DNA from: an uncultured Candidatus Binatia bacterium
Lineage (GTDB): Bacteria; Desulfobacterota; Binatia; Bin18
Reading direction: 5' to 3'
DNA: 64,000 bases
Assembly (NCBI GenBank): GCA_965242605.1
Contig: CBDESS010000004.1
Coordinates: 5,835 to 69,834, forward strand
This document shows, in pieces, positions 1-50,707 of this stretch (position 1 is the stretch's first letter; every line of letters starts with the position of its first letter). The notes under the pieces were generated by a model that had not been told where the DNA came from, searched no databases, and saw nothing but the letters and a program-made list of their open reading frames with translations. Made by a program: the position numbers and the translations under genes.

Positions 1-2227
1 CAAGCACCTCAAAACCCTGCGACCGGTGGGCCGCGGCGAGCACGGCCGGGTCCCGCGGCCTGACGTGCAGAAAGAAGCCGGGGGCCGTGTCCGCCGGACG
101 ACACGGTGCCCGCAGGTAGGTCAACGTGGTCCCGTCAAGGTACAGAGCAAAGTGCGACCGGGCCACGGGGGCATCCGCCACCACCGCCCGGCAGGCCGTG
201 CGCACCAGGTCGATCGCGCTGGCACCGGGAGGCGACAGGGGGATAGCCACCCGCCACAGATCGGCACCCGTGGAAGGTACCATCTGGCCGGCTTCAATGG
301 CCCGGATCGGATAGGCCGGCAAGGGCAGCCGAATCAGACACCGCCCGTCCACTCGGACACCGTACCGGCCAAGCTCGAAGAACAGCCTCTCAAAGCCACG
401 CTTCCGACGACGCCGGGGTAGATCGGCCATGTCCACCGGGAAGACCCACACCGAGAAGAACCCGCGCATGTCCACCGGGCCGCAGGCTGCCTTCACCCAT
501 GTCAAGGTTGGGCCCTCCAGATACAGGTCAAAGACCGCCCGCCCGACCTGCACCCCGGCTGTCACGGCCCGATAGACGGCCCGATAGGCGGCCACGGTGG
601 CCGCGTCCACCCGGGTCAAGTTGGGGGCCGTCACCGTCAGGATGGGGTTGTGGTAAATCCGGCGGGTATAGAGGCTGGGTGCGAAGAGGGGGCCGCCGAG
701 GCCGAGCTGCAAGTAGCGCTGGTGATCGATCATCTGAAAGTCCCCCAGCAACGTCCTGGCCTCGGGGATGAAGCGGCGGCTCGCTTTGGGAAGAATGAGC
801 CGGTTGTGGCGTATATAGCTGCTATGCTGAATGCCCGTCCCCAACAAGACCGGTACGGCGGGATAGCGGTGGAGGAGATGTTCCAACCCCTCCCGGTGCG
901 CGGGTCCCCAGTGGTCCATATCATACTGGGTCCCCAGGTAGTCGGGCGTGCGCCGGTCCACCAGGGCGTTGAAATAGACCTGCTGATACGGATGAAGGGA
1001 GAGCATCTCGACGACCACCCCGACCAGGCCTGCTGCGGCCAGCGCGTGGACGCCTGCCCGCAGCCCCGGCCGGGGGCAGACCGCCGCCAGCCAGCGCAGC
1101 CCGAACACTGCCAGCAGACACACCGGTACATACAGAAAGTAGACCTGACGCCAGCCATCGTAGAGGTTGGTGTTGACGACGATGGCGGCGACGACCGGGA
1201 GCACCAGACAGGCGACGAGCAGCAACCCGAAGCGGGCGACGGGGTCGCCCAGCACGGTGCCGGGGGAGCGCAGGCCGCGATGCATCACGTATGCTGCCCC
1301 CACCAGACTCAGCAGCAGCACCCCCGGCGGGGTAGTGAGGGCGACCCAGGTCGGAATGTAGTCCGCGGGAATCCACGGCCAACGCACCGGCTCGCCCTGG
1401 AAGAGGGTCACAAGGTGAGACGGGTGCAGGGAGGAGACTGCCACAGCCTCGCCCAACGCCAAGGGGTCGCCCCACAGGTAAGGCGAAACCGCGTACAGCG
1501 TCAATGCACTGGCCACCACGAACACCGCCCCGGTGCTCAGAAGGTGCCAGCGTGCCGCCCGCCCCGCCGCCCCCACCAGGTCGCCCGCCCGCAGGACCAC
1601 CACCATAGCGAACAGCAGCACGCCTATGATACGCTGGTTGGTCGCTATCCCTACCCCCACCCCGCACAGTGCGAACGCCCCAAGACTCTCCCGCCGCCAC
1701 GCCCGGTGAATCAGGAACAGGACCAGCAGGAACATCACCAGGAAGGGGATATCCTTGGTGTTGACAAAGGAGTGGGCGTAGAGCCGGGGATGGAGCACGA
1801 ACAGCAGCAGGGCCACCAGAGCCAGCCAGCGGCTGTGGAAGAGGTGGTACACCAGCCGGGCACAGCAGTAGCCACCGGCCAGAAAGAAGAGGTGGGTCAG
1901 CAGATGACGGCTCAGGAAGACGGCTCGGCTGTCAGTGGGGTCCAGCAGCCGCTCAATGAGCGCCAGCGGCACCTCGAAGACAACGCCGTAGAACCGGTGG
2001 AAGGGAGGATAGGAGGGCAGCAGGGTTTCGGCGTCTCCCAGCATGTAGTCGACCGTCGCATGGCCGATGTAGTACTGGACTTGCTCGTCCACCCCTAAGC
2101 CGTAGTCGTCAAGGACGACCACGCCCACGACGGCCAAGCCTGCCAGGGCCAGGAGCGTGCCGCGGGCAAACACACCCGCGACTGCCCTCTGACCCCACTT
2201 CGGGAGGGACGCCGGGATACCGCTCAC
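1..2227 (-). CDS. GT-C-fold membrane glycosyltransferase paralog (PMT/ArnT-like). 3' end truncated by the window edge; whether it is intact was not verified.
   Basis: Sequence upstream of 2227 matches the N-termini of copies 2-5 (…LPKWGQRA…, GTG start overlapping the stop of the next copy). Frame relationships of its shadow ORFs (921..1700, 730..1158) match those in copies 2-4. No long ORF is listed, probably because no in-window stop exists. Confidence 0.5.
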   Translation of the reverse strand, partial: MSGIPASLPKWGQRAVAGVFARGTLLALAGLAVVGVVVLDDYGLGVDEQVQYYIGHATVDYMLGDAETLLPSYPPFHRFYGVVFEVPLALIERLLDPTDSRAVFLSRHLLTHLFFLAGGYCCARLVYHLFHSRWLALVALLLFVLHPRLYAHSFVNTKDIPFLVMFLLVLFLIHRAWRRESLGAFALCGVGVGIATNQRIIGVLLFAMVVVLRAGDLVGAAGRAARWHLLSTGAVFVVASALTLYAVSPYLWGDPLALGEAVAVSSLHPSHLVTLFQGEPVRWPWIPADYIPTWVALTTPPGVLLLSLVGAAYVMHRGLRSPGTVLGDPVARFGLLLVACLVLPVVAAIVVNTNLYDGWRQVYFLYVPVCLLAVFGLRWLAAVCPRPGLRAGVHALAAAGLVGVVVEMLSLHPYQQVYFNALVDRRTPDYLGTQYDMDHWGPAHREGLEHLLHRYPAVPVLLGTGIQHSSYIRHNRLILPKASRRFIPEARTLLGDFQMIDHQRYLQLGLGGPLFAPSLYTRRIYHNPILTVTAPNLTRVDAATVAAYRAVYRAVTAGVQVGRAVFDLYLEGPTLTWVKAACGPVDMRGFFSVWVFPVDMADLPRRRRKRGFERLFFELGRYGVRVDGRCLIRLPLPAYPIRAIEAGQMVPSTGADLWRVAIPLSPPGASAIDLVRTACRAVVADAPVARSHFALYLDGTTLTYLRAPCRPADTAPGFFLHVRPRDPAVLAAAHRSQGFEVL

Positions 2228-4665
2228 TTGGCCGCCTCCCTGCCCGCTTCGTCTGCCCGGGCCTCCACCCGGACCGCTACCTCCCAGACCCGCTCGGCCC
2301 CCCGGCCCTGCCCCGTCCGCAGCTCAGCGATGCGGTAGGCTGGCAGCCGAATGGACCCCAGACACCTGCCAGCGAAGTACGCCGCCTGCTGCATCTGCGG
2401 GGCGTGACCGGGGTGCCGCCAGAACGTGAAATCAAGGACCCGAAAGCCCTCGGATTGGCGGGCCCCGGCGAGCACGGCCGGATCCCGCGGCCTGACGTGC
2501 AGAAAGAAGCCGGGGGCCATGTCCGCCCGGCGACACGGAGCCCGCAGGTAGCTCAGCGTGGTCCCGGCCAGGTACACAGCAAAGTGCGACCGGGCTACGG
2601 GGGGACCCGCCACCGTCGCCCGGTAGGCCGTGCGCACGGCGTCGGTCGCGAGGGCCCCGGGCGGCGACACAGGGATGACCACCCGCCACAACTCGGCCCC
2701 CCCCCCCCTGCTCGCTACTTGGCTGGCTTCAATGGCCTGAATCAAATAGGCTGGCAAAGGCAGCCGGAGCAGACACCGCCCGTCCACCCGCACGCCGTAC
2801 CGCATAAGGGCGAAACGCAACTCCTCAAAGCCCCACTTCCGACGCCACTGGGACAGAGCGGCCACATCCACCGGGAAGACCCGCACCACGAAGGACCAGC
2901 CCCTGTGCAGGTCCGCTGGGCCGCAGGACATCTTCACCCCCATCAAAGTCCGGCTCTCCAGATACAGGCCAAAGTCCGCCCGCCCGACCGCCGGCCCGCC
3001 CGTCACGGCCCGGGCTACGGCCCGATAGGCGGCCGTGGTGGCCGCGTTGACCCGAGTCGGGTTGAGGGCCGTCACCGTCAGGAAGGTGTTGTGGTAAATC
3101 TTGCGGGCATAGAGGCGAGGCGCGAAGGGGGGACCGCCGAGGTCGCGCAGCAAGGAGTACAGGGAGGAACTGAGCACCTGAAAGTCCCCCGGTGGTGCCC
3201 CGCCCGCGGCGAAGGCGAGGCGGCGGCGCGCCGCTTTGGGAAGAATGAGCCGGTTTGGGGCCCCCTCAGCACTCATCTCCAGCGAGAGCGGTAGTGTGGG
3301 ATAGCGGTGGAGGAGATGTTCCAACCCCTCCCGGTACACAGTTCCCCAGCGGTCCATCTCATACTGGGTCCCCAGGTAGTCGGGCGTGCGCCGGTCCACC
3401 AGCGCATTGAAATAGACGATCTGATGGGGATGGAGGGCCACCAGTTCGACGACCACCCCGGCCAAGCCGGCTGCGGCCAGCGCGTAGACGCCGGGCCGCA
3501 GTCCCGGCCGGGGGCAGACCGCCACCAGCCAACGCAGCCCGAACACCGCCAGCAGACACAGCGGGGCGTACAGAAAGCAGACCTGACGCCAGCCGTCGTA
3601 GAGGTTGGCGTTGACGACGAGGACGGCGACGACCGGGAGGACCAGACAGGCGACGAGCAGCAGCCCGAAGCGGGCGACGGGATTGCGGAACACCTCGCCG
3701 GGGCGGCTCAGGCCGCGATGCATCACGGATACTGCTCCTGCCAGACCCAGCAGCAGCACCCCCGGCGGGGTGGTAATGGCGACCCAGGTCGGAAGGTAGT
3801 CCGCAGGAATATCAGGCCAGCGCACCGGCTCGCCCTGGAAGAGGGTCGGGGAGCGAGTCGGATGCTGGGCGAAGACTGCCACGGCCTCGCCCAACGCTAA
3901 GGGGTCGCCCCACAGGTAGGGCGAGACCGCGTACAGCGTCAATACACTGGCCACCACGAACACCCCACCAGTGCTCAAGACGTGCCAACGCGCCGCCCGC
4001 CCCGCCGCCCCCACCAGGTCGCCCGCCCGCAGGACCACCACCACGGCGAACAGCAGCACGCCCATGATGCGCTGGTTGGTCGCTACCCCCACCCCTACCC
4101 CGCACAGTGCGAACGCCCCAAGACTCCCCCGCCGCCACGCCCGGTGAATCAGGAACAGGACAACCAGGAACATCACCAGGAAGGGGATGTCCTTGGTGTT
4201 GACGAAGGAGTGGGCGTAGAGCCGGGGCTGGAGCACGAACAGCAGCAGGGCCACCAGAGCCAGCCAGCGGCTGTGGAAGAGCTGGTACACCAGCCGGGCA
4301 CAGCAGCCGCCGCCGGCCAGAAAGAAGAGGTGGGTCAGCAGATGACGGCTCAGGAAGACGGCCCGGCTGTCAGTGGGGGCCAGCAGCCGCTCAATGAGCG
4401 CCAGCGGCACCTCGAAGACAACGCCGTAGAACCGGTGGAAGGGAGCATAGGAGGGCAGCAGGGTTTCGGCGTCTCCCAGCATGTAGTCGACCGTCGCATG
4501 GCCGATGTAGCGCTGGACTTGCTCGTCCGCTCCTACGCCGTAGTCGTCAAGGACGGCCACGCCCACGCCGGCCAAGACCGCCAGGGCCAGGAGCGTGCCG
4601 CGGGCAAACACACCAGCGACTGCCCTCTGACCCCACTTCGGGAGGGACGCCGGGATACCGCTCAC
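2224..4665 (-). CDS. GT-C-fold (PMT_2/ArnT-like, GT39/GT83-type) polytopic membrane glycosyltransferase, 813 aa. N-terminal ~450 aa multi-TM domain, C-terminal ~350 aa soluble domain with an internal duplicated module.
   Basis: 813-aa ORF. Many hydrophobic helices. DDYG/DE-type loop motif after TM1 (VLDDYGVGADE) and HRFYGVVFEVPL as in PMT/ArnT. ~90% identical to copy 4662..7103. Confidence 0.8.
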   Translation of the reverse strand: MSGIPASLPKWGQRAVAGVFARGTLLALAVLAGVGVAVLDDYGVGADEQVQRYIGHATVDYMLGDAETLLPSYAPFHRFYGVVFEVPLALIERLLAPTDSRAVFLSRHLLTHLFFLAGGGCCARLVYQLFHSRWLALVALLLFVLQPRLYAHSFVNTKDIPFLVMFLVVLFLIHRAWRRGSLGAFALCGVGVGVATNQRIMGVLLFAVVVVLRAGDLVGAAGRAARWHVLSTGGVFVVASVLTLYAVSPYLWGDPLALGEAVAVFAQHPTRSPTLFQGEPVRWPDIPADYLPTWVAITTPPGVLLLGLAGAVSVMHRGLSRPGEVFRNPVARFGLLLVACLVLPVVAVLVVNANLYDGWRQVCFLYAPLCLLAVFGLRWLVAVCPRPGLRPGVYALAAAGLAGVVVELVALHPHQIVYFNALVDRRTPDYLGTQYEMDRWGTVYREGLEHLLHRYPTLPLSLEMSAEGAPNRLILPKAARRRLAFAAGGAPPGDFQVLSSSLYSLLRDLGGPPFAPRLYARKIYHNTFLTVTALNPTRVNAATTAAYRAVARAVTGGPAVGRADFGLYLESRTLMGVKMSCGPADLHRGWSFVVRVFPVDVAALSQWRRKWGFEELRFALMRYGVRVDGRCLLRLPLPAYLIQAIEASQVASRGGGAELWRVVIPVSPPGALATDAVRTAYRATVAGPPVARSHFAVYLAGTTLSYLRAPCRRADMAPGFFLHVRPRDPAVLAGARQSEGFRVLDFTFWRHPGHAPQMQQAAYFAGRCLGSIRLPAYRIAELRTGQGRGAERVWEVAVRVEARADEAGREAAK

Positions 4666-7103
4666 TCGACCGCCTCCGGGCCCCCTGAGGCGGCCCGGGC
4701 CTCCACCCGGACCGCTACCTCCCAGACCCGCTCGGCCCCCCGGCCCTGCCCCGTCCGCAGCTCAGCGATGCGGTAGGCTGGCAGCCGAATGGACCCCAGA
4801 CACCTGCCAGCGAACAACGCCGCCTGCTGCACCTGCGGGGCGTGACCGGGGTGCCGCCAGAACGTGAAATCAAGCACCCGAAAGCCCTCGGATTGGCGGA
4901 CCCCCACGAGCACGGCCGGGTCCCGCGGCCTGACGTGCAGAAAGAAGCCGGGTTCTGTGTCCGCCCGGCGACACGGAGCCCGCAGGTAGGTCAGCGTGGT
5001 CCCGGCGAGGTACACAGCGAAATGCGACCGGGCCACGGGGGGACCCGCCACCGTCGCCCGGTAGGCCGTGCGCACGGCGTCGGTCGCCGGGGCCCCGGGC
5101 GGCGACACAGGGATGGTCACCCGCCACAACTCGGCCCCCCCCTCCCTGCTCGCTACTTGGCTGGCTTCAATGGCCTGAATCAGATAGGCCGGCAAGGGCA
5201 GCCGAATCAGACACCACCCGTCCACCCGCACGCCGTACCGCCTAAGGGCGAAACGCAACTCCTCAAAGCCCCACTTCCGACGCCGCTGGGACAGAGCGGC
5301 CACATCCACCGGGAAGACCCGCACCACGAAGGGCCACCCCCTGTGCAGGTCCGCCGGGCCGCAGGACGTCTTCACCCACATCAAAGTCCGGCTCTCCAGA
5401 TACAGGGCAAAGTCCGCCCGCCCGACCGCCGGCCCGCCCGGCACGGCCCGGGCTACGGCCCGATAGGCGGCCGTGGTGGCCGCGTTGACCCGAGTCAGGT
5501 TGAGGGCCGTCACCGTCAGGAAGGTGTTGTGGTAAATCTTGCGGGCATAGAGGCGAGGCGCGAAGGGGGGACCGCCGAGGTCGCGCCGCAAGAAGTCCAG
5601 GGAGGAACTGAGCACCTGAAAGTCCCCCGGTGGTGCCCCGCCCGCGGCGAAGGCGAGGCGGTGGCGCGCCGCTTTGGGAAGAATGAGCCGGTTTGGGACC
5701 CCCAGAACATGCATCTCCAGCGAGATCGGTGAAGTGGGATAGCGATGGAGGACATGTTCCAACCCCTCCCGGTATATGGTTCCCCAGGAGTACATCTCGT
5801 ACTGGGTCCCCAGGGAGTCGGGCGTGTGCCGGTCAACCAGGGCGTTGAAATAGACCTGCTGATAGGGATGAATGGAAACCGTTGCGACGACCACCCCGGC
5901 CAAGCTCACTGCGGCCAGCGCGTAGACGCCGGGCCGCAGCCTCGGCCGGGGGCAGACCACCGCCAGCCAGCGCAGCCCGAACACCGCCAGCAGACACAGC
6001 GGGGCGTACAGAAAGTAGACCTGACGCCAGTCGTTGTAGAGATTGGCGTTGACGACAATGACGGCGACGACCGGGAGCACCAGACAGGCGACGAGCAGCA
6101 GGCCGAAGCGGGCGACGGGGTCGCCCGGCACGGCACCGGGAGAGCGCAGGCCACGATGTATCACGGACACTGCCCCCACCAGACCCAGCAGCAGCACCCC
6201 CGGCGGGGTGGTAATGGCGATCCAGGTTGGAAGGTAGTGTGCGGGAATATCCGGCCAGTGCACCAGCTCGCCCTGGAAGAGGGTCGAGGAGTGAGTCGGA
6301 TGCTGGGAGGAGACTGCCACAGCCTCGCCCAACAGCAAGGGGTCGCCCCACAGATAGGGCGAGACCGTGTACAGCGTCAATACACTGGCCACCACGAACA
6401 CCGCCCCAGTGCTCAGAACGTGCCAGCGTGCCGCCCGCCCCGCCGCCCCCGCCAGGTCGCCCGCCCGCAGGACCACCACCACGACGAACAGCAACGCGCC
6501 CATGATGCGCAGGTTGGTCGCTACCCCCACCCCCACCCCGCACAGTGCGAACGCCCCAAGGCTCTCCCGCCGCCACGCCCGGTAAATCAGGAACAGAGCG
6601 ACCAGGAACATCACCAGGAAGGGGATGTCCTTGGTGTTGACAAAGGAGTGGGCGTAAAGCCGGGGATGGAGCACGAACAGCAGCAGGGCCGCCAGGGCCA
6701 GCCACCGGCTGCGGAAGAGCTGGTACACCAGCCGGGCACAGCAGTAGCCACCGGCCAGAAAGAAGAGATGGGTCAGCAGATGGCGGCTCAGGTAGATGGC
6801 CCGGCTGTCGGTGAGGCCCAGCAGCCGCTCAACGAGTACCAGCGGCACCTCGAAGACAACGCCATAGAACCGGTGGAAGGGAGGATAGGAGGGCAGCAGG
6901 GTTTCGGCGTCTCCCAGCATGTAGTCGACCGTCGCATGGCCGATGTAGTACTGGACTGGATCGTCCGTCGTTATGCCGTAGTCGTCGAGGACGACCATGC
7001 CCATGACGGCCAAGACCGCCAGGGCCAGGAGCGTGCCGCGGGCAAACACGCCAGCGCCTGCCCTCTGACCCCACTTCGGGAGGGACGCCAGGATACCGCT
7101 CAC
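4662..7103 (-). CDS. GT-C-fold membrane glycosyltransferase paralog, 813 aa
   Basis: 813-aa ORF. GTG start at 7103 overlaps the TGA of the next copy. Same architecture as 2224..4665. Confidence 0.8.
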   Translation of the reverse strand: MSGILASLPKWGQRAGAGVFARGTLLALAVLAVMGMVVLDDYGITTDDPVQYYIGHATVDYMLGDAETLLPSYPPFHRFYGVVFEVPLVLVERLLGLTDSRAIYLSRHLLTHLFFLAGGYCCARLVYQLFRSRWLALAALLLFVLHPRLYAHSFVNTKDIPFLVMFLVALFLIYRAWRRESLGAFALCGVGVGVATNLRIMGALLFVVVVVLRAGDLAGAAGRAARWHVLSTGAVFVVASVLTLYTVSPYLWGDPLLLGEAVAVSSQHPTHSSTLFQGELVHWPDIPAHYLPTWIAITTPPGVLLLGLVGAVSVIHRGLRSPGAVPGDPVARFGLLLVACLVLPVVAVIVVNANLYNDWRQVYFLYAPLCLLAVFGLRWLAVVCPRPRLRPGVYALAAVSLAGVVVATVSIHPYQQVYFNALVDRHTPDSLGTQYEMYSWGTIYREGLEHVLHRYPTSPISLEMHVLGVPNRLILPKAARHRLAFAAGGAPPGDFQVLSSSLDFLRRDLGGPPFAPRLYARKIYHNTFLTVTALNLTRVNAATTAAYRAVARAVPGGPAVGRADFALYLESRTLMWVKTSCGPADLHRGWPFVVRVFPVDVAALSQRRRKWGFEELRFALRRYGVRVDGWCLIRLPLPAYLIQAIEASQVASREGGAELWRVTIPVSPPGAPATDAVRTAYRATVAGPPVARSHFAVYLAGTTLTYLRAPCRRADTEPGFFLHVRPRDPAVLVGVRQSEGFRVLDFTFWRHPGHAPQVQQAALFAGRCLGSIRLPAYRIAELRTGQGRGAERVWEVAVRVEARAASGGPEAVE

Positions 7104-9529
7104 CCGGCCTCCTCCGGGCCGGCTGAGGCGGCCCGGGCCTCCACCGGGACCGCCGCCGCCCAGACCCGCTCGGCCCCCCGGCCCTGCCCGGTCCGCAGCC
7201 TGGTGATGGGGTAAGCTGGCAGCCGAATGGACGCCAGACAGGTGCCGGCAAAGCGCGCCGCCTGGTCTACCTGCGGGGCATAACGGGGGTGCCGCCGGAA
7301 CGCGAAATCGAGCACCTCAAAGCCCCGGGACCGGCGGGCCGCCGCGAGCACAGCCGGGTCCCGGGGTCTGACGTGCAGAAAGAAGCCGGGGGCCGTGTCC
7401 GCTGGACGACAGGGGGCCCGCAGGTAGGTCAGCGTGGTCCCGGCGAGGTACAGGGCAAAGCGCGACCGGGCCACGGGGGCACCCGCCACCGCCACCCGGT
7501 AGGCTTCGCGCACCAGGTCGGTCCCGGTGGCACCGGGAGGCGACACAGGGATGGCCACCCGCCACAGATCGGTGCCCCCGAAAGGCAGCACTTGCCTGGC
7601 TTCAATGGCCCGGCTCGGATAGGCCGGCAAGGGCAGCCGAATCAGACACTGGCCGTCCACCAGGACACCGTACCGGCTGAAGTCGAAGTACCTCTCCTCA
7701 AATCCCCACTTCCGACGCCATCGGGGCAGGTCGGCCACATCCACCGGGAAGACCTGCACCGAGAAGGACCCGCGCAGGTCCGCCGGGCCGCAGGCCACCT
7801 TCACCCACATCAGGGTCTGGTCATCCAGATACAGGTCAAAGCCCACCCGACCGACCGGCACCCCGCCCGTCACGACCCGGACCACAGCCCGATAGGCGGC
7901 CGTGGTGGCTACATCCACCCTGGCCAAGTTGGGGGCCGTCACCGTCAGGACGGTGTTATGGTAAATCTGATGGTTATAGAGGTGAGGCGCGAAGAGAGGG
8001 CCGCTAAGGCCGCGCCGCAAGTTTGAGTGGTGATCGATCACCTGAAAGTCCCCAGACGGCACCCCGCCCTCGGCGAGGACGAGGCGGCGGCGCACCGCTT
8101 TGGGAAGAATGAGCCGATTCCGGACCCCCAGACCATGCATCTCCAGCGAGATCGGTGAAGTGGGATAGCGGCGGAGGAGATGTTCCAACCCCTCCCGGTG
8201 CGTGGTTCCCCAGCGGTCCATCTCGTACCAGGTCCCCAGGTAGTCGGGCGTGCACCGGTCCACCAGGGCATTGAAATAGGCTATCTGGTGGGGATGGAGG
8301 GCCACCAGCTCGACGACCACCCCGGCCAGGCCCGCCGCCGCCAGCCCATGCATGCCCTGCCGCAACACGGCCCAGCGACAGACCGCCGCCAGCCAGCGCA
8401 GCCCGAACACTGCCAGCAGACACACCGGGGCGTACAGAAAGTAGACCTGACGCCAGCCGTTGTAAAGGTTGGCATTGACAACGAGGACGGCGACAACCGG
8501 GAGGACCAGACAGGCGACGAGCAGCAGGCCGAAGCGGACGACGGGGGCACCCAGCACGGTGCCGGGGGAGATCAAACCGCGATGCATCACGGACACTGCC
8601 CCTACCAGACTCAGCAGCAGCACCCCCGGCGGGGTGGTGATGGCAATCCAGGTCGGAAGGTAGTCCGCAGGAAGCTCCGGCCAGCGTACCGGCTCGCCCT
8701 GGAAGAGGGTCACAGCGTGAATCGGGTGCTGGGAGAGGACTGCCACGGCCTCACCTAGCGCCAAGGGGTCACCCCACAGGTAGGGCGAGACCGCGTACAG
8801 CGTCAACACACTGACTGCCACGAACACCGCCCCCGTGCTCAGAACGTGCCAGCGTGCCGCCCGCCCTGCCGCCCCCACCAGGTCGCCCGCCCGCAGGACC
8901 ACCACCACAACGAACAGCAGCACGCCCATGATGCGCAGGTTGGTCGCTACCCCCACCCCGACCCCACACAGTGCGAACGCCCCAAGGCTCTCCCGCCGCC
9001 ATGCCCGGTGAATCAGGAACAGGGCAACCAGGAACAGCACCAGGAAGGGGATGTCCTTGGTATTAACGAAGGAGTAAGCGTAGAGCCGGGGATGGAGCAC
9101 GAACAGCAGCAGGGCGACCAGGGCCAGCCAGCGGCTGTGGAAGAGGTGGTACACCAGCCGGGCACAGCAGTACCCACCGGCCAGAAAGAAGAGGTGGGTC
9201 AGCAGATGGCGGCTCAGGTAGATGGCCCGGCTGTCGGTGAGACCCAGCAGCCGCTCAACGAGCACCAGCGGCACCTCGAAGACGACGCCATAGAACCGAT
9301 TGTGGGGAAGACCGGGGGGCAGCAGAACCTCAGCGTCCCCCAGCAGGTAGTTGACCGCCGCATGGCCGTGTCCGTACCGGAGCTCTTCGTCCCGCGAAAC
9401 GCCGTAGTCGTCAAGGACGGCCACGCCCATGACGGCCAAGACCGTCAGGGCCAGGAGTACGCTGCGGGCAAGCGCGACATCGCCTGCTCCCTGGCCCCGC
9501 TTCGGGGGGGACACCGGGATACCAGTCAC
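7100..9529 (-). CDS. GT-C-fold membrane glycosyltransferase paralog, 809 aa
   Basis: 809-aa ORF. Conserved N-terminal TM domain. C-terminal domain more diverged from copies 2/3 and closer to copy 5. Confidence 0.8.
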   Translation of the reverse strand: MTGIPVSPPKRGQGAGDVALARSVLLALTVLAVMGVAVLDDYGVSRDEELRYGHGHAAVNYLLGDAEVLLPPGLPHNRFYGVVFEVPLVLVERLLGLTDSRAIYLSRHLLTHLFFLAGGYCCARLVYHLFHSRWLALVALLLFVLHPRLYAYSFVNTKDIPFLVLFLVALFLIHRAWRRESLGAFALCGVGVGVATNLRIMGVLLFVVVVVLRAGDLVGAAGRAARWHVLSTGAVFVAVSVLTLYAVSPYLWGDPLALGEAVAVLSQHPIHAVTLFQGEPVRWPELPADYLPTWIAITTPPGVLLLSLVGAVSVMHRGLISPGTVLGAPVVRFGLLLVACLVLPVVAVLVVNANLYNGWRQVYFLYAPVCLLAVFGLRWLAAVCRWAVLRQGMHGLAAAGLAGVVVELVALHPHQIAYFNALVDRCTPDYLGTWYEMDRWGTTHREGLEHLLRRYPTSPISLEMHGLGVRNRLILPKAVRRRLVLAEGGVPSGDFQVIDHHSNLRRGLSGPLFAPHLYNHQIYHNTVLTVTAPNLARVDVATTAAYRAVVRVVTGGVPVGRVGFDLYLDDQTLMWVKVACGPADLRGSFSVQVFPVDVADLPRWRRKWGFEERYFDFSRYGVLVDGQCLIRLPLPAYPSRAIEARQVLPFGGTDLWRVAIPVSPPGATGTDLVREAYRVAVAGAPVARSRFALYLAGTTLTYLRAPCRPADTAPGFFLHVRPRDPAVLAAARRSRGFEVLDFAFRRHPRYAPQVDQAARFAGTCLASIRLPAYPITRLRTGQGRGAERVWAAAVPVEARAASAGPEEAG

Positions 9530-11997
9530 TCGGCCTCCTCCGGGCCGACTGAGGAGGCCCGGGCCTCCACCCGGGCCGCCGCCGCCCAGGCCCGCTCGGC
9601 CCCCTGGCCCTGCCCGGTCCGCAGCCCGGCGATGGGGTAAGCCGGCAGCCGAATGGCCGCCAGACAGGTACCAGCGAAGAACACCGCCTGGTCTACCTGC
9701 GGGGTGCGACGGGAGTGCCGCCGGAACGCGAAATCGAGCACCTCAAAGCCCCGGGGCCGGCGGGCCGCAGCGAGCACGGCCGGGTCCCGTGGCATGATGT
9801 GCAGAAAGAAGCCGGGGGCCGTGTCCGCCGGACGACAGGGGGCCCGCAGGTAGGTCAAGGCGGTCCCGTCAAGGTACAAGGCAAAGTGCGACCGGGCCAC
9901 GGGGGGACCCGCCACCGTCGCCCGGTAGGCCGTACGCACCAGGTCGGTCGCGGTGGCACCGGGGGGCGACACAGGAATGGCCACCCGCCACAGATCGGCA
10001 CCCGTGGAAGGAGCCACTTGACCGGCTTCGATGGCCCGGATCGGGTAGGCTGGCAAGGGCAGCCGGAGCAGACACCGGCCGTCCACCCGGACGCCGTACC
10101 GGCTGAAGTCGAAGTACCTCCCCTCAAAGCCCCACTTCCGACGCCACCGAGGCAGATCGGCCACGGCCGCCGGAAAGACCTGCACCGAGAAGGAGCGCCC
10201 GCGCGTGTCCGCTGGGCCGCAGGCCGCCTTCACCCACATCAAAGTCTGGCCATCCAGATACAGGTCAAAGCCCGACCGACCGACCGGCACCCCACCCGTC
10301 ACGACCCGGACCACGGCCCGATAGGCGGCCGTGGTGGCCGCGTCTACCCGGGCCGGGTTGAGGGCCGTCACCGTCAGGATGGTGTTGTGATAAATCTGGC
10401 GGGTATAGAGGCTGGGTGCGAAGAGGGGACCGCTAAGGCCGCGCCGCAAGTTTGAGTGGTGATCGATCACCCGAAAGTCCCCTGGCGGCGCACCGCCCTC
10501 GGCGAGGACGAGGAGGCGGCGCGCCGCTTTGGGAAGAATGAGCCAGTTTTGGCGCACCTGGCCGATATCCAGACCGCGTGTCTCCACCGAAACCGGTGAG
10601 GTGGGATAGCGGTGGAGGAGATGTTCCAACCCCTCTCGGTATGTGGTTCCCCAGCGCTCCATCTCGTACTGGGTCCCCAGGTATTCGGGCGTGCGCCGGT
10701 CCACCACGGCGTTGAAATAGGCCATCTGGTGAGGATGAAGGCCCACCAACTCGACGACCACCCCGGCCAGACCCGCTGCGGCCAGCGCGTGGACGCCCGG
10801 CCGCAGCCCCGGCCAGGGGCAGACCGCCGCCAGCCAGCGCAGCCCGAACACTGCCAGCAGACACAGCGGGGCGTACAGAAAGTAGACATGACGCCAGTCC
10901 ATGTAGAGGTTGGCATTGACGACGAGGACGGCGACAACCGGGAGCACCAGACAGGCGACGAACAGCAGCCCGAAGCGGGCGACGGGGTCGCCCAGCACGG
11001 TACCAGGGGAGCGCAGGCTGCGATGCATCACGGACACTGCCCCTGCCAGACTCAGCAGCAGCACCCCCGGCGGGGTGGTGATGGCAATCCAGGTCGGAAG
11101 GTAGTCCGCGGGGATATGCGGCCAGCGCACCGGCTCGCCCTGGAAGAGGGTCGCAAGGTGAATCGGGTGCTGGGAGAGGACTGCCACGGCCTCACCTAGC
11201 GCCAAGGGGTCACCCCACAGGTAGGGCGAGACCGCGTACAGCGTCAATACACTGGCCACCACGAACACCGCCCCCGTGCTCAGAACGTGCCAGCGCGCCG
11301 CCGCCCCCACCAGGTCGCCCGCCCGCAGGACCACCACCACAACGAACAGCAGCACGCCCATGATACGCAGGTTGGTCGCTACCCCCACCCCCACCCCGCA
11401 CAGTGCGAACGCCCCAAGGCTCTCCCGCCGCCACGCCCGGTGAATCAGGAACAGGGCACCCAGGAACATCACCAGGAAGGGGATGTCCTTGGTATTAACG
11501 AAGGAGTAAGCGTAGAGCCGGGGATGGAGCACGAACAGCAGCAGGGCGACCAGGGCCAGCCAGCGGCTGTGGAAGAGGTGGTACACCAGCCGGGCACAGC
11601 AGTAGCCACCGGCCAGAAAGAAGAGGTGGGTCAGCAGATGGCGGCTCAGGTAGATGGCCCGGCTGTCGGTGAGGCCCAGCAGCCGCTCAACGAGCACCAG
11701 CGGCACCTCGAAGACGATGCCGTAGAACCGGTTGGCGGGACCACCAGGGAGCAGCAGGACCTCGGCGTCTCCCAGCAGGTAGTTGACCGCCGCATGGCCG
11801 ATCCGGCGCTGAGGGGACTCCTCGTCCGCCCCTACGCCGTAGTCGTCAAGGACGGCCACGCCCACGACGGCAAAGACCGCCAGGGCCAGGAGCGCACTGC
11901 GGGCGAGCACGCCGGCGACTGCTCCCTGGCCCTGCTTCGGGGGGGACGGCGGGATACCATTCACTCGGCCCCCTCCTTGCCGGGGTCGGAAGACCAC
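9526..11997 (-). CDS. GT-C-fold membrane glycosyltransferase paralog, the last copy of the array. Likely true start GTG at 11964 rather than 11997.
   Basis: 823-aa ORF. The paralog-conserved N-terminus begins at …VNGIPPSPPKQGQ. GTG at 11964..11962 overlaps the TGA (11961-11963) of the upstream GT2-remnant ORF, the same GTGA junction as inside the array. Confidence 0.8.
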   Translation of the reverse strand: MVFRPRQGGGRVNGIPPSPPKQGQGAVAGVLARSALLALAVFAVVGVAVLDDYGVGADEESPQRRIGHAAVNYLLGDAEVLLLPGGPANRFYGIVFEVPLVLVERLLGLTDSRAIYLSRHLLTHLFFLAGGYCCARLVYHLFHSRWLALVALLLFVLHPRLYAYSFVNTKDIPFLVMFLGALFLIHRAWRRESLGAFALCGVGVGVATNLRIMGVLLFVVVVVLRAGDLVGAAARWHVLSTGAVFVVASVLTLYAVSPYLWGDPLALGEAVAVLSQHPIHLATLFQGEPVRWPHIPADYLPTWIAITTPPGVLLLSLAGAVSVMHRSLRSPGTVLGDPVARFGLLFVACLVLPVVAVLVVNANLYMDWRHVYFLYAPLCLLAVFGLRWLAAVCPWPGLRPGVHALAAAGLAGVVVELVGLHPHQMAYFNAVVDRRTPEYLGTQYEMERWGTTYREGLEHLLHRYPTSPVSVETRGLDIGQVRQNWLILPKAARRLLVLAEGGAPPGDFRVIDHHSNLRRGLSGPLFAPSLYTRQIYHNTILTVTALNPARVDAATTAAYRAVVRVVTGGVPVGRSGFDLYLDGQTLMWVKAACGPADTRGRSFSVQVFPAAVADLPRWRRKWGFEGRYFDFSRYGVRVDGRCLLRLPLPAYPIRAIEAGQVAPSTGADLWRVAIPVSPPGATATDLVRTAYRATVAGPPVARSHFALYLDGTALTYLRAPCRPADTAPGFFLHIMPRDPAVLAAARRPRGFEVLDFAFRRHSRRTPQVDQAVFFAGTCLAAIRLPAYPIAGLRTGQGQGAERAWAAAARVEARASSVGPEEAE

Positions 11998-12245
11998 AGG
12001 TCAAGACCGTAGCACCTGCCCGCCCGCCAACCCCTCCATCCCAGTTCGGGAAGTTGCTCAAGGGCAGCCACCAGACAGCGGTGCATCTCGGGCAGGACCG
12101 CTTCCTCATTGAAGCAGGGGACAACTACAGACAGGAGACTACAGTTTCTAACACTGAATCGGGGCGGCAGCAGGCGGTGAAGAGATCGTGCCATCAGCCC
12201 TATCAGTGCCGGGAAGTATACGTCTGGGAAATCTCTATGAGACAT
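11961..12245 (-). pseudogene. Remnant of a GT2 (Dpm1/ArnC-like polyprenyl-phosphate sugar synthase type) glycosyltransferase. Only the N-terminal ~67 aa remain, fused to a few codons resembling a GT-C 3' tail.
   Basis: 94-aa ORF contains the classic GT2 N-terminal motif LSVVVPCFNEEAVLPE…LEQLPE. It then lacks the expected (D)YEII.VDDGS motif in any frame. It terminates on the GTGA junction of the first array gene. Confidence 0.5.
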
Positions 12246-12925
12246 TCAAACAAGTGGCTGGCTTCGACCGTGGGGATAGGCTCTGGCACCGTCTGGTGTA
12301 TCAGTTCCTTGTCGAAGAACCCGTCAAGCGAACCGGCCAATCCAATGGAGCGAGCAAATGCGGTCAGGGGGGCAACAATGGTCCGATGGAACGCCTCCGG
12401 CCTCCAGTGCAGCACGGGGAACCGCAACTTTTCGTGCAAGAGAACAAGTTCGGTATTATACGCACACCACAGCCGCAGACCATCGTCCCTCTCGACCGTA
12501 AGCGAGCCGTGTCTAGCGGCGAGCGACCGGATGACCAGAGACGGGTGCCGAAATATCGCTATGGGGCGCGCACCGGGTACCAACCGCAGCCATCCCTCCA
12601 CGGTCCACATGGTGCGGGGATCCTTGAATCCCCAGGGACGTGCGGCTTCAAGATAGGGAAAAATCAGTGCCTTGCCTTGTCTTTCGCTCTTGTGATCCCA
12701 CTTGACTTGGCCACTTGGCGGGTCCCTCCAGGAGGCACCCGCCTTGGTCAACAGCGCATCGTTCAACTCCCGTATGGCTTCATTTTCCTTATTGCCCTTT
12801 TTGTTGAAAGGGGCTTGGTGATTAACATCGCCCAGATACAACCCTCCAGCCTCTAGGCTGCCGAGCAGAAGTGATGTTCCACTCCGGTGCATCCCCAAAA
12901 CGATCACACATGGAGACTGTGACAT
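12203..12925 (-). CDS. Sulfotransferase family protein (PAPS-dependent)
   Basis: 240 aa. N-terminal VIVLGMHRSGTSLL matches the 5'-phosphosulfate-binding loop of sulfotransferases. Plus-strand ORFs here are antisense shadows. Confidence 0.7.
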   Translation of the reverse strand: MSQSPCVIVLGMHRSGTSLLLGSLEAGGLYLGDVNHQAPFNKKGNKENEAIRELNDALLTKAGASWRDPPSGQVKWDHKSERQGKALIFPYLEAARPWGFKDPRTMWTVEGWLRLVPGARPIAIFRHPSLVIRSLAARHGSLTVERDDGLRLWCAYNTELVLLHEKLRFPVLHWRPEAFHRTIVAPLTAFARSIGLAGSLDGFFDKELIHQTVPEPIPTVEASHLFECLIEISQTYTSRH

Positions 12926-12966: not shown

Positions 12967-13857
12967 CTATTCTTCGCGCAAGAGAAACCGCCGGGCGGCA
13001 GGGTGCATATGTCCGACGAAAACGGGGTCTACGGATTCGTGAGCTTCATACGGCTTGCCGTATATTGTCTCATATTCCTCCTGGTAGAGCTCCCACGGGT
13101 GCTGACCCATGGGGACATTCGTTGCAAAACCGCCGTGGAATTGATGGAATGTTCCTTCGCCCAACAGACAGACAGGTGTCAAAGCGTCGTCCAGAACCGC
13201 ACGCTGGAAGAAATCATGAGTGGCCAAGCCGCCTGCCGGTCTCTGGAATGCTTCATTGAAACCACCCATGTAAAAAAAACGGTTACGGCCGATCGTGAGA
13301 CAACTGCTCTCCGCTATCGTCCCGAAATAGCCACCGCGGGATGAGAGGGCCAGGCAGGAGATCTTGAACAGCCGATAGCCGTCGCTTCGCCAATCAATAT
13401 CGTGAAGAAGCCTGTCCTCGGTATTCTGGTCATATCCCTTGAGCATGGAATCGTTCTGTATCTCGTCGCCCAGGTGGAATCCTGGGGTATAGATGAAAGG
13501 ATTTGTGAATCGTTCGGTACAGAAACGCATCCATCCAAGTATGCCGGGGCTGCAAATACGGGCCCCATCAATCAGGAGCATGACATAGGGGGATTTTGCC
13601 CGGCGCACGCCGTAATTCACGGCAGACACCGGGGATACCGACGAGGTCGGATAGGAGATGTACTGAAACTGCCGTCCGAAACGCTTGACCTCGGCTTTGG
13701 ACAGGGGGACCGAAGAACCGTTGTCTATGGCGATCACTTCGTAAGGAAAGCTCACCTGCTGATATTCGGCGGACAGGGAAAAGAGCGTCCTTGGCGCTTC
13801 GCGTCTCATATTGTAGAAGATCACCACGACGGAGAGCTTGGGTCTTTTGAAAATCAT
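12967..13857 (-). CDS. GT2 family glycosyltransferase. The ORF extends to 13956 but the likely start is the internal Met at 13857.
   Basis: MIFKRPKLSVVVIFYNMRREAPRTLFSL…YEVIAIDNGSS are GT2 N-terminal/DxD-type motifs. 4-nt gap to the sulfotransferase start region. Confidence 0.8.
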   Translation of the reverse strand: MIFKRPKLSVVVIFYNMRREAPRTLFSLSAEYQQVSFPYEVIAIDNGSSVPLSKAEVKRFGRQFQYISYPTSSVSPVSAVNYGVRRAKSPYVMLLIDGARICSPGILGWMRFCTERFTNPFIYTPGFHLGDEIQNDSMLKGYDQNTEDRLLHDIDWRSDGYRLFKISCLALSSRGGYFGTIAESSCLTIGRNRFFYMGGFNEAFQRPAGGLATHDFFQRAVLDDALTPVCLLGEGTFHQFHGGFATNVPMGQHPWELYQEEYETIYGKPYEAHESVDPVFVGHMHPAARRFLLREE

Positions 13858-13924
13858 GACGCACTCCCCTGTGACCGCAATAATCTGATAGCGGCGACAT
13901 CTCCCATTCCCATTTTTCTGCTCG

Positions 13925-15775
13925 TCAATCCAACTCAAACGCCTCTGCGTGTTCATGCCGGAGCGCCGGGTTCTGATCCTCTTTGCGCAAAAAACAGTTA
14001 CCGATGGCTAGACAATCAAGGTCGGTACCCATGAAACAGCGAAAGGCGTCCGCGGGGGTGCACACGATAGGCTCGCCGCGCACATTGAAGCTGGTGTTCA
14101 CGATGACCGGGCAGCCCGTTCTGGCCTTGAACGCTTCAAGCAGCGCGGAGTAGCGGGGGTTGGTCTCAGGATGGACGGTCTGCACGCGGGCGGAATAATC
14201 GACATGGGTTACCGCGGGAATGTCCGAGCGCGGGATGTGCAACAGATCAACGCCGAACAGGGCCCGCTGCGCCTCGGTCGTCGCCTTGCGTCGCTCTGGC
14301 TTCACGGCCGCGACCAGCAGCATATAGGGGCTGTCGCGGTCAAGCTCGAACCAGTCAGCCACATCGGCCCGCAGCACGCTCGGCGCAAAGGGGCGGAAGG
14401 ACTCGCGGTGTTTGACCTTGAGGTTGAGCGTCTTTTGCATGGCGGGCGAACGTGCGTCGGCCAGGATGGAACGGTTGCCCAGGGCACGCGGCCCAAACTC
14501 CATCCGCCCCTGAAACCAGCCCAGCGCTTTGCCGGCGGCCAGCGACTCGGCCGTAACGTTGATCAGCGCGTCGGTCGTCAAGGTCTCGTGGCACGCGCCG
14601 GCCGCGTCAAGCGCCGCGCAGATCTCCTTCGGGCTGAACTCGGGGCCGAGAAAAGCCCCGCGCATGGCATCGTCAGGTGCTCCGCCGCTGGTCTCGCCGC
14701 AATGGCGCGGCTCACCAAACAGACGATGGCTTGCCAACAGCGCCGCGCCCAATGCCCCTCCGGCGTCGCCCGCCGCCGGCTGCACCCAGATGTCCGCAAA
14801 CTTCCCGTCTCGCACCACCTTGCCGTTAGCCACGCAGTTGAGCGCCACGCCGCCGGCCAGACACAGATACGGGATGCCGGTCTCCGCCCGCAGCGAGCGG
14901 GTCAGCCGCAGCACCGCTTCCTCAACCACCGCCTGGGCCGAGGCCGCCAAGTCCATGTGCCGCTGCGTCACCGGCTCCTGCGGCGTCCGTGCTGGACCGC
15001 CGAACAGCGCGTCGAAGCGGCCGTTGGTCATCGTCAGCCCGGTGCAGTAGTCAAAGTAGTCAAGGTTGAGGCGGAAGGTACCGTCGGCCTTCAGGTCGAT
15101 CAGGTGGTCAAGAATAGTGCGGGCGTAGGTCGGCTCGCCATAGGGGGCCAGGCCCATCAGCTTGTATTCGCCGGAGTTGACCTTGAAGCCGGTGTACAGG
15201 GTGAAGGCCGAGTAGAGCAGCCCCAGGGAGTGCGGGAAGTGGAGCTCTCGGATGATCTCCAACTCGTTGCCGTGGCCGATGCCGACCGAGGTGGTGGCCC
15301 ATTCGCCCACCCCGTCCAGGGTCAGGACTACCGCGTCGCGGAACGGAGACGGATAGAACGCGCTCGCCGCATGCGCCTGGTGGTGCTCGGCGAACAGCAG
15401 CTTGGTGTTCCAGTCCACATCCGGGGCGAGTCCTTGCAGTTTCCGGCGCAGCAGGTTTTTCTGAAACAGCTTCTCTTTGATCCACAGCGGGGCGGCCATG
15501 CTGAAGGAGCGGAAGCCGCGCGGCGCAAAGGCCACACAGGTTTCGAGCAGCCGCTCGAACTTGAGGAAGGGTTTGTCGTAGAACGCCACCCGGTCAATGG
15601 CCGCGGGGGGAAGGCCAGCCTGAGCGAGACAGGAGGCAATGGCCTTGGCCGGATAGCCGGAATCGTGCTTCTTGCGGGTGAAGCGCTCCTCCTGGGCCGC
15701 GGCGACGATCCGCCCACCGTCCACCACAGCTGCGGCGCTGTCGTGATAGAAGGCTGAGATACCAAGAACGCGCAT
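13925..15775 (-). CDS. Carbamoyltransferase, NodU/CmcH/TobZ (HypF-like) family, 616 aa
   Basis: Full-length match to the carbamoyltransferase family: MRVLGISAFYHDSAAA…, YSARVQTVHPETNPRY, NTSFNVRGEPIV. Confidence 0.85.
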   Translation of the reverse strand: MRVLGISAFYHDSAAAVVDGGRIVAAAQEERFTRKKHDSGYPAKAIASCLAQAGLPPAAIDRVAFYDKPFLKFERLLETCVAFAPRGFRSFSMAAPLWIKEKLFQKNLLRRKLQGLAPDVDWNTKLLFAEHHQAHAASAFYPSPFRDAVVLTLDGVGEWATTSVGIGHGNELEIIRELHFPHSLGLLYSAFTLYTGFKVNSGEYKLMGLAPYGEPTYARTILDHLIDLKADGTFRLNLDYFDYCTGLTMTNGRFDALFGGPARTPQEPVTQRHMDLAASAQAVVEEAVLRLTRSLRAETGIPYLCLAGGVALNCVANGKVVRDGKFADIWVQPAAGDAGGALGAALLASHRLFGEPRHCGETSGGAPDDAMRGAFLGPEFSPKEICAALDAAGACHETLTTDALINVTAESLAAGKALGWFQGRMEFGPRALGNRSILADARSPAMQKTLNLKVKHRESFRPFAPSVLRADVADWFELDRDSPYMLLVAAVKPERRKATTEAQRALFGVDLLHIPRSDIPAVTHVDYSARVQTVHPETNPRYSALLEAFKARTGCPVIVNTSFNVRGEPIVCTPADAFRCFMGTDLDCLAIGNCFLRKEDQNPALRHEHAEAFELD

Positions 15776-15936: not shown

Positions 15937-16371
15937 TCAGAACTGGTTTTGCATGGACTCGGGTTCTGGCCCTGGCGGCTCGCGGTGGAGCCAGTAACTG
16001 GGCACGGTCGGGTCGGCGCGCAGACGCAGCGGGTCCTTGCCCAGGGCACGCATGATGAGGCCGGTCGGCGTCACCACCGCGAAGTAGATCATGGCCAGGA
16101 TGACCGGGCTGACGAGGCGGTGGAGGAGCAGGCCGAGCCTGAACCAGACCGTGTTGAACGGGGCCAGCGCCTCGGCCTTGACCAGCGTCACCGCCAGCAC
16201 CACACCGGCAACGGCCAGCGCCCAGCCGCGGGGCGGCCTGCCGCCGAGCAGCGGCAACAGACCGATCACGACAAACAGGGCGACAAGGACGGCACCAAAA
16301 CCGCGCTCTGAGCTCCTTGCAACCGCTTCTTCGTCTGTCAGTCGCTCGTGGGACTGCATCCGTTTCGGCAT
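15937..16371 (-). CDS. SxtJ-like small membrane protein (144 aa)
   Basis: 144-aa ORF with two hydrophobic segments. Size and position (directly upstream of the SxtK-like peptide and the carbamoyltransferase) match the sxtJ-sxtK-carbamoyltransferase triad. Confidence 0.55.
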   Translation of the reverse strand: MPKRMQSHERLTDEEAVARSSERGFGAVLVALFVVIGLLPLLGGRPPRGWALAVAGVVLAVTLVKAEALAPFNTVWFRLGLLLHRLVSPVILAMIYFAVVTPTGLIMRALGKDPLRLRADPTVPSYWLHREPPGPEPESMQNQF

Positions 16372-16620
16372 ATCAAAGGTCCTTCTCTTCTGGAGTCCAG
16401 CGGGTTGACATCCAGCGGTCGAACGCGCTACTCCCTGCCAGAGGCAGTAAGTCTATCAAGAACGCAGGTCTTAGCAAACCGGTCGTATGGTCATCCATGC
16501 GAACCGTCGTTTTTTTCATCTATTGACGATGGCGAACACAAGGCGAACACAAGGAAGAAGGCAGCTAAGCAGGTCATCTACCGCTACGGCGATAAGCGCA
16601 AGAACAACCCGCATGTCGGT

Positions 16621-17250: not shown

Positions 17251-17348
17251 TGGACCTCCCCGACTGAACCAGCCGCCTCTTTCCTCGTCTTTCCTCTCCA
17301 CCCGGGAGAGGGTCAAGGTGAGGGCAACACGCCAGTGGAGACACCGCC

Positions 17349-18752: not shown

Positions 18753-18753
18753 A

Positions 18754-50706: not shown

Positions 50707-50707
50707 G

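Follow-up and report, generated by a model that had tools for sequence, protein, structure and literature searches.

What do the products of a head-to-tail run of closely related membrane glycosyltransferase genes do, and how does such a run arise? The question is raised by a stretch of 64,000 nucleotides from an uncultured Candidatus Binatia bacterium (assembly GCA_965242605.1, contig CBDESS010000004.1, positions 5,835 to 69,834 of the forward strand), here called the window, to which all nucleotide positions below refer. At its left end lies an array of genes for GT-C glycosyltransferases. The reading that we favour, with a probability of roughly 0.55, is that the array encodes a coupled set of periplasmic glycan-decorating GT-C paralogs with diverging acceptor specificities.

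The list of open reading frames (ORFs) and their translations contains five head-to-tail genes on the minus strand, each coding for about 810 residues, of which copies A to D are complete and copy E is partial. Copy A (9526..11964, 812 residues, recorded as P0016) is the first gene of the array. It is followed by copy B (7100..9529, 809 residues, P0011), copy C (4662..7103, 813 residues, P0001), copy D (2224..4665, 813 residues, P0002) and copy E, which is cut by the window edge (1..2227, with 742 of 811 residues visible; the full protein is P0013). The frame of copy A is open from 11997, with the homologous start being the GTG at 11964 and not the first in-frame GTG at 11997; in front of this start stands GGAGGGGGCCGA (GGAGGGGGCCGA-GTGA), the same motif arrangement as at the internal junctions. 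At all four internal junctions the start GTG overlaps the stop TGA in a GTGA (at 9526–9529 for A and B), and a GGAGG or GGGAGG motif is located 4–7 nucleotides 5' of each internal start. From this layout the array is predicted to be operon-like and translationally coupled. Pairwise identities among the copies are 84–92% at the nucleotide level and 76–87% at the amino acid level, the closest pairs being C/D (92% and 87%, respectively) and A/B (90% and 85.5%). An earlier, sequence-only reading of this DNA had described the five genes, their GTGA coupling and a nested similarity between its copies 2/3 and 4/5, which correspond to C/D and A/B, and all of this is borne out. The same reading proposed a count of further copies upstream; given the minus-strand orientation, the array begins at 11964 and continues past the left window edge, so any further copies would be downstream. 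A protein search returned all five window proteins as recorded sequences, together with two more paralogs, P0007 and P0008, from the same 405,158-bp contig, which therefore holds at least seven copies. Back-to-back copies number at least five, and probably seven or more if these two are counted.

Arrays of similar genes may be created or altered by mis-joined repeats during assembly, which could account for the number or the order of the copies seen here. The longest exact run common to any two copies is 135 nucleotides and near-identical stretches reach 97–99% over about 300 nucleotides, which could allow chimeric joins of short reads. The copies are nevertheless 8–16% apart, each with its own unique substitutions and an intact reading frame, the seven distinct paralogs are recorded on one 405-kb contig, and comparable arrays are present in chromosome-level records of metagenome-assembled genomes (MAGs) and on an independent metagenome scaffold. 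For these reasons an artefact, be it collapse or expansion, is extremely unlikely.

All five copies match the Pfam family PMT_2 (PF13231), with scores of 29.3–34 bits against a gathering cutoff of 26.1 (34 bits for copy A and 33.2 bits for copy B), and homologs of the array proteins also match Pfam PMT. No other Pfam family, MIR and TPR included, was found in copies A to E at E ≤ 1, and NCBIfam gave no match. The AlphaFold2 model of copy C, made with 76 homologs, has a mean predicted local distance difference test score (pLDDT) of 79 and a predicted template modelling score (pTM) of 0.74. Its membrane domain (residues 1–415, nucleotides 7103–5859, minus strand) contains 11 long membrane helices within residues 11–412, in agreement with a crude hydropathy scan, and the fold superimposes on solved GT-C enzymes, the matched structures including Pmt1-Pmt2 (PDB entry 6p2r) and EmbA-EmbB (PDB entry 7bvf). 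Directly after helix 1 (residues 11–42), where the first periplasmic loop begins and where GT-C enzymes canonically have their catalytic acid, are Asp40 and Asp41 (nucleotides 6986–6981, minus strand); among the 76 homologs D41 is invariant and D40 is at least 90% conserved. Eleven helices combined with a positively charged amino-terminus place the carboxy-terminal 400 residues outside the cytoplasm. As a FadL/TodX outer-membrane protein is encoded in the window, the host should be a two-membrane (Gram-negative-type) bacterium, in which "outside" means the periplasm. The array proteins are GT-C fold enzymes, with a predicted cytoplasmic amino-terminus and a probably periplasmic carboxy-terminal region. 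Both the GT-C assignment and the soluble, probably periplasmic carboxy-terminal region had been proposed from the sequence alone, and both stand.

When a profile of the 76 homologs was compared with PDB chains, none was matched at E ≤ 1, although Pmt1, Pmt2 and Pmt4 were in the searched set; ArnT was likewise unmatched. The copies could not be assigned to the PMT family (GT39), having neither a MIR domain nor sequence similarity to Pmt1/2/4, nor to the ArnT family (GT83), for which there is no NCBIfam match, no match to ArnT in the PDB and no arn-operon neighbour. As judged by profile comparison, the array proteins are not closely related to any GT-C family of which structures are known.

The carboxy-terminal third of the protein starts with an alpha/beta subdomain (residues 440–540 of copy C, approximately) and continues with two beta-sandwich modules of about 125 residues each. 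Residues 436–813 of copy C, modelled alone, gave a pLDDT of 86.8 and a pTM of 0.84. Module 1 comprises about residues 541–668 (nucleotides 5483–5100) and module 2 about residues 669–800 (nucleotides 5099–4704), both on the minus strand. The two are homologous, with 33% identity and E = 5e-15, which confirms the internal duplication that had been noticed in the sequence-only reading. Each module has an Ig/FN3-like fold (immunoglobulin/fibronectin type III), and no Pfam model or close PDB relative was found for it. In module 1, Cys581 and Cys631 are invariant among the 76 homologs; in module 2, Cys768 is invariant and Cys711 is at least 90% conserved. A cysteine pair in each module fits a periplasmic disulfide.

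The module is widespread and occurs in variable number. Searching with the carboxy-terminal region with phmmer against 1.84 billion cluster representatives (50%-identity clusters) gave 1,404 matches at E ≤ 1e-3, of which 191 are at E ≤ 1e-30. A profile hidden Markov model (HMM) of the module finds one to five modules per protein among close homologs, with two being present in 117 of 135. Among the best 148 of the 1,404 representatives the count ranges from one to ten, and only 35 of these 148 match the membrane-domain HMM of the array family. In 73 of the non-matching proteins the first module is preceded by 350 residues or more; a crude scan finds at least five hydrophobic segments in this part of 67 of them, so that a multi-pass membrane domain stands in front of the modules in nearly all. 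One non-matching protein, P0140 (a 50%-cluster representative of 1,851 residues), has an amino-terminal Wzy_C domain of the O-antigen-ligase type, followed by ten modules; other proteins that do not match the membrane-domain HMM have weak PMT_2 matches or no Pfam match. The module is thus a repeat domain found on envelope glycan enzymes of several kinds, and is undescribed in Pfam. Its being joined to several such kinds favours a glycan ligand over a protein, which makes the modules a candidate new family of carbohydrate-binding modules (CBMs). Elsewhere in the window, a Wzy_C membrane protein of 660 residues, similar to O-antigen ligases and polymerases (33151–35133, plus strand), is encoded among catabolic genes; the module present in some other Wzy_C proteins is absent from it.

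A protein ligand belongs to a different explanation, according to which the paralogs are PMT-type protein O-glycosyltransferases for different periplasmic, outer-membrane or S-layer proteins, with modules that recognise protein. The Pfam matches, limited to PMT_2 and, in homologs, PMT, are what this would lead one to expect. Ig/FN3-like folds, as in the modules, commonly serve as scaffolds for protein binding, and the tandem STT3 paralogs of Trypanosoma brucei differ in peptide-acceptor specificity (PMC2722254). Yet the lack of any MIR or TPR domain and the failure of the profile to find Pmt1/2/4 in the PDB argue against protein O-glycosylation, as do the joining of the same module to a Wzy_C domain of the glycan ligase/polymerase type and the recurrence of family-2 glycosyltransferase (GT2) and sulfotransferase genes as neighbours. 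We consider this explanation unlikely, and keep to glycan decoration.

Do the copies differ where they would meet an acceptor? The ratio of non-synonymous to synonymous substitution rates (omega) was estimated by the Nei-Gojobori method, with bootstrap intervals for the regional values. Between whole genes omega is 0.5–0.72, at synonymous divergences (dS) of 0.11–0.27. The membrane core (residues 100–247) has values of 0.19–0.42, with all confidence intervals below 1, and is under purifying selection. In the periplasmic loop EL1 (residues 43–99) omega is 0.7–2.1, with intervals that include 1; in the first carboxy-terminal subdomain (residues 456–540) it is 0.4–3.6, with intervals that mostly include 1; and in the modules (residues 541–742) it is 0.4–0.7. 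Column entropy among 29 paralogs from three related genomes follows the same division, being 0.22 in transmembrane helices 2–7, 0.85 in EL1 and 1.04 in residues 456–540, and the most variable stretches across these paralogs are residues 62–76 and 455–506. The pattern of substitutions indicates that the copies are functional enzymes, with surfaces towards the periplasm that evolve at the neutral rate or faster. The sequence-only reading had located the differences in the carboxy-terminal 350 residues or so; the peaks are instead in EL1 and in residues 456–540. It had also called the array diversifying, a term that is borne out in part: omega is around 1 in EL1 and the first subdomain as compared to 0.2–0.4 in the core, but the intervals include 1.

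The same numbers bear on a neutral or dosage-driven amplification, in which redundant copies would drift under relaxed constraint and have no meaningful differences in specificity. The high whole-gene omega at low dS is in line with this, as are the absence of any region with omega significantly above 1 and the rapid turnover of copies among related genomes. On the other hand, all intervals in the core are below 1, and the variation is not even but concentrated on periplasmic surfaces. Full-length frames and every invariant residue are also kept in copies A to E as well as in P0007 and P0008, and a MAG whose chromosome measures 1.83 Mb retains independent arrays. Purely redundant copies are therefore distinctly improbable, and diverging acceptor specificities remain our preferred account.

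The copies also bear traces of how they arose. In the C/D pair the carboxy-terminus is the more similar half. Sliding-window identity shows copy D to be nearest to copy E over its 5' 450 nucleotides or so (93–97%), and nearest to copy C over its 3' half (93–98%). The array copies are recombination mosaics, as would be expected where tandem genes undergo unequal crossing-over or gene conversion. Among the top 120 matches, 7, 12, 14 and 17 paralogs are on contigs of four related genomes. In a neighbour-joining tree of 44 paralogs of four genomes, recent lineage-specific duplicates are found amid shared clades, with no one-to-one orthology, and the paralogs thus appear to evolve by birth-and-death.

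This turnover is relevant to a further explanation, in which the copies are subunits of a hetero-oligomer, comparable to Pmt1-Pmt2 or EmbA-EmbB, kept at equal stoichiometry by coupling and building one periplasmic polymer sequentially. A stop/start overlap at every junction would favour equimolar co-translation, every copy is intact and has kept its catalytic core, and two of the solved structures matched by the membrane domain, 6p2r and 7bvf, are complexes. A copy number that ranges from one to at least 17 across related genomes without one-to-one orthology is a poor fit to a fixed machine, however, and the genes in related arrays are separated by intergenic gaps of 50–140 nucleotides, without overlaps. 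A machine of this kind is quite unlikely.

We also considered whether the array came from elsewhere. The GC content at third codon positions (GC3) is 0.82–0.84 in the array and 0.72–0.85 in native genes. The array has a higher overall GC content, which comes from first codon positions, and a strong T>A skew; both are due to amino acid composition and not to foreign origin. A horizontally acquired island was rejected on these grounds. No homologs were found in phage records, and plasmid records gave one weak match only, so that an origin in phage-borne seroconversion is unsupported. An origin in a sponge symbiont, hinted at by the style of the accessions of the related MAGs, is not claimed, as no retrieved record documents the habitat.

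Related loci in other genomes were located by tblastn and HMM scans, in which relatives in the searched genome contigs were found at 41–45%. The Gammaproteobacteria MAG OZ251487.1, with a chromosome of 1.83 Mb, has at least four loci, of four copies (L002), three copies (L003), two copies (L001) and a single copy (L004). Together these are 10 GT-C copies matching the membrane-domain HMM, in addition to module-bearing ORFs without that match; most of the copies have one carboxy-terminal module and are about 650 residues long. Three copies are present in an Azotimanducaceae MAG (L005), five on a 10-kb metagenome scaffold (L008), and one at a further locus (L009). The first junction on the scaffold is an ATGA overlap; related arrays otherwise have the gaps of 50–140 nucleotides mentioned above. 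As a control, 40 loci from JGI metagenomes with distant relatives (25–36% identity), all without the module, were inspected. In 37 of these 40 the gene is single-copy, which makes tandem amplification a property of the module-bearing subfamily. We conclude that coupled tandem arrays are a habitual feature of an uncharacterised GT-C subfamily, most of which comes from uncultured bacteria. The sequence-only reading had described arrays of this kind as unusual. Within the module-bearing subfamily they are typical, and other GT-C enzymes provide a precedent in TbSTT3A–C (PMC2722254). The embCAB genes are tandem as well. Our literature search found no account of the array family or of such arrays in bacteria. 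Next to some of these loci, the module is found behind more divergent amino-terminal domains with weak or absent PMT_2 matches (L001, 2745–5123; L005, 12266–14011; L009, 15837–17834), which suggests that these array-adjacent proteins are older, more diverged members of the family.

Upstream of the array, on the same strand, three genes for sugar-modifying activities are located. The cluster that leads into the array opens with a carbamoyltransferase of the NodU/CmcH-like type (13925..15775, minus strand, GC3 0.81), which matches Carbam_trans_N with E = 1.7e-104 and Carbam_trans_C with E = 8e-75; its match to the NodU model is far under the cutoff of that model. It overlaps by 32 nucleotides with the gene for a GT2 enzyme of 329 residues (12967..13956, minus strand, GC3 0.64), which scores 31.5 bits with Glycos_transf_2 against a cutoff of 23.3 and has no specific NCBIfam equivalog. 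Next is a sulfotransferase of 240 residues (12203..12925, minus strand, GC3 0.64), with 28 bits for Sulfotransfer_3 against a cutoff of 27. The 240-nucleotide gap between the sulfotransferase and copy A contains LLSVVVPCFNEEAVLPEMHRCLVAALEQLPELG (12039..12137, minus strand), 33 residues that may be the remnant of a GT2 amino-terminus, with a sub-threshold match to positions 1–23 of PF00535 (E = 0.027). The GC3 of 0.64 in the GT2 and sulfotransferase genes, compared to 0.81–0.84 in the flanking genes, suggests that these two arrived more recently, and LLSVVVPCFNEEAVLPEMHRCLVAALEQLPELG may be what is left of a polyprenyl-phosphate sugar synthase displaced by their insertion.

Neighbours of similar kinds are seen in other genomes. 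At L009, the gene for the single-copy homolog overlaps with the beginning of a GT2 gene, behind which lies a sulfotransferase gene, and a GT2-domain protein is encoded near the L005 array. The association of the array with sugar-modifying genes therefore recurs in kind, not in detail: the GT2 and sulfotransferase proteins of the window are not homologous to those at L009, and their role as conserved orthologous partners was rejected. Given this and the differing GC3, a functional link between the upstream genes and the array is suggestive and not established.

Several observations weigh against glycan decoration by specialised copies. Omega values above 1 have no statistical support in any region, and relaxed constraint would explain the periplasmic values equally well. 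Within the window, no donor-synthesising enzyme of the GtrB/ArnC type is encoded beside the array, bar the 33-residue possible remnant, the upstream GT2 being a weak generic match to its family. Scans of ORFs across the window yielded no Pfam family of GtrA or MATE flippases. The upstream GT2 and sulfotransferase genes, with their GC3 of 0.64, are not orthologous to the neighbours at L009, and the arrays of the Gammaproteobacteria MAG sit amid unrelated housekeeping genes such as argF, an aminotransferase gene and recJ. A scan for promoters and terminators gave results at chance level only.

An invertible promoter in front of the array was also considered and is unsupported, as no meaningful inverted repeats were found upstream of it. 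There are no tRNA genes or Rfam elements in the window.

The remainder of the window is of a different nature. Divergent from the glycan cluster is a low-GC, defence-like cassette (16348–19491, plus strand, GC3 about 0.62), in which an AAA_15 ATPase (17349–18752) matches PADLOC model PD-T4-4_A with E = 1.4e-105. The ATPase gene is preceded by an ORF of 300 residues resembling a fragment of a Type III methyltransferase and followed by a gene for a protein of 245 residues with a weak PDC-M47B match. Two restriction-modification loci, both with a low GC3 (0.59–0.73), are located further on. The first (48958–51559, minus strand) encodes a BanI-like Type II endonuclease and an N4/N6 methyltransferase with an HNH-repeat tail; the second (53902–56004, plus strand) encodes a protein of 700 residues in which a Type I-like N6 methyltransferase is joined to a specificity-subunit region. 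Between 20649 and 48279 is a dense catabolic block, with four Amidohydro_2 proteins, two Baeyer-Villiger/FMO-like monooxygenases, two luciferase-like monooxygenases, a P450, TauD, a glyoxalase, an FAA hydrolase, a nitroreductase, an enoyl-CoA hydratase and a family III CoA-transferase. Beyond this block, EthD proteins, PhyH, an esterase and a FadL-type porin are encoded.

Returning to the array, we propose the following mechanism. If the copies work like all GT-C enzymes characterised so far, each would draw a sugar from a donor linked to polyprenyl phosphate at the periplasmic face of the membrane, and would pass it to an envelope acceptor, most likely a surface polysaccharide or a lipopolysaccharide-type glycan. 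This acceptor glycan would also be sulfated and carbamoylated by the products of the upstream genes. The acceptor polymer would be held by the carboxy-terminal subdomain and the beta-sandwich modules. The overlapping junctions would couple translation along the operon. Copies would be born by tandem duplication and would still exchange segments by unequal crossing-over or gene conversion, with selection keeping the catalytic membrane core and leaving the periplasmic surfaces free to drift or to diversify. It is in the acceptor site, or in the donor, that the paralogs would differ, and jointly they would make a complex or variable surface glycan. In its essentials, this is the interpretation already offered by the sequence-only reading, which the present analysis supports.

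A bolder and rather unlikely extension is that the array acts as a recombination engine, in which exchanged EL1 and carboxy-terminal segments yield GT-C enzymes of chimeric specificity, and the resulting rapid changes in surface glycan between lineages allow evasion of phages or of a host. This may then be a mechanism like antigenic variation, acting on glycosyltransferases and using an undescribed, widespread, periplasmic glycan-binding repeat domain.

GT-C decoration of finished surface glycans drives antigenic diversity, phage-receptor masking and host recognition. To our knowledge, the bacterial decorating systems have one GT-C enzyme per locus. Here, a subfamily almost entirely of uncultured bacteria has expanded to coupled arrays of three to at least seven genes, apparently with 7–17 or more paralogs per genome and with relaxed or diversifying selection on periplasmic surfaces. 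If the copies differ in specificity, such arrays would be a compact genetic route to very complex or fast-changing surface glycans. The module of about 125 residues, present in more than 1,400 clusters and a candidate new CBM family, should be useful for annotation and glycoengineering. As a whole, the finding is solid; it hints at a diversification of surface glycans, and its mechanism is a conventional one for GT-C enzymes.

How does the array compare with known systems? In the mycobacterial embCAB cluster the genes for the arabinosyltransferases EmbC, EmbA and EmbB are adjacent, so that here too GT-C paralogs are found side by side. The likeness extends to the protein architecture, with a multi-pass membrane domain and a two-part carboxy-terminal extracytoplasmic region. 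Emb proteins have two subdomains in this region, one of them a lectin-like CBM with a beta-sandwich fold, to which the acceptor polymer binds (PMC3044687). The array family differs in its 11 modelled helices, its Gram-negative-type host and its at least seven copies; its carboxy-terminal module is a tandem repeat of variable number (one to ten) and its junctions are coupled by overlaps. From ArnT (GT83) and the fungal and actinobacterial PMT enzymes (GT39) the array proteins are further removed, with no detectable sequence similarity, MIR domain or arn operon, and a different carboxy-terminal architecture.

Three-component systems of the Gtr type (GtrA, GtrB and a Gtr-type enzyme) and of the GT136 type, with the enzyme ORF12 of Citrobacter youngae as an example, use a polyprenyl-phosphate sugar to add side chains to a surface polysaccharide that is already complete (PMC11127046). 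They share with the array an 11-helix GT-C enzyme with its catalytic aspartate just after helix 1, a carboxy-terminal beta-rich region (a CBM in GT136), and the mechanism proposed here. They differ in that no polyprenyl-phosphate sugar synthase and flippase were found beside the array, and in that there is no sequence match and no homolog in phage records; moreover, those loci hold one GT-C gene each, whereas the array has many. Many copies in tandem are found in Trypanosoma brucei, where TbSTT3A, TbSTT3B and TbSTT3C are tandem GT-C paralogs with distinct donor and acceptor specificities (PMC2722254), and these provide the clearest precedent for an arrangement with one GT-C enzyme per class of acceptor site.

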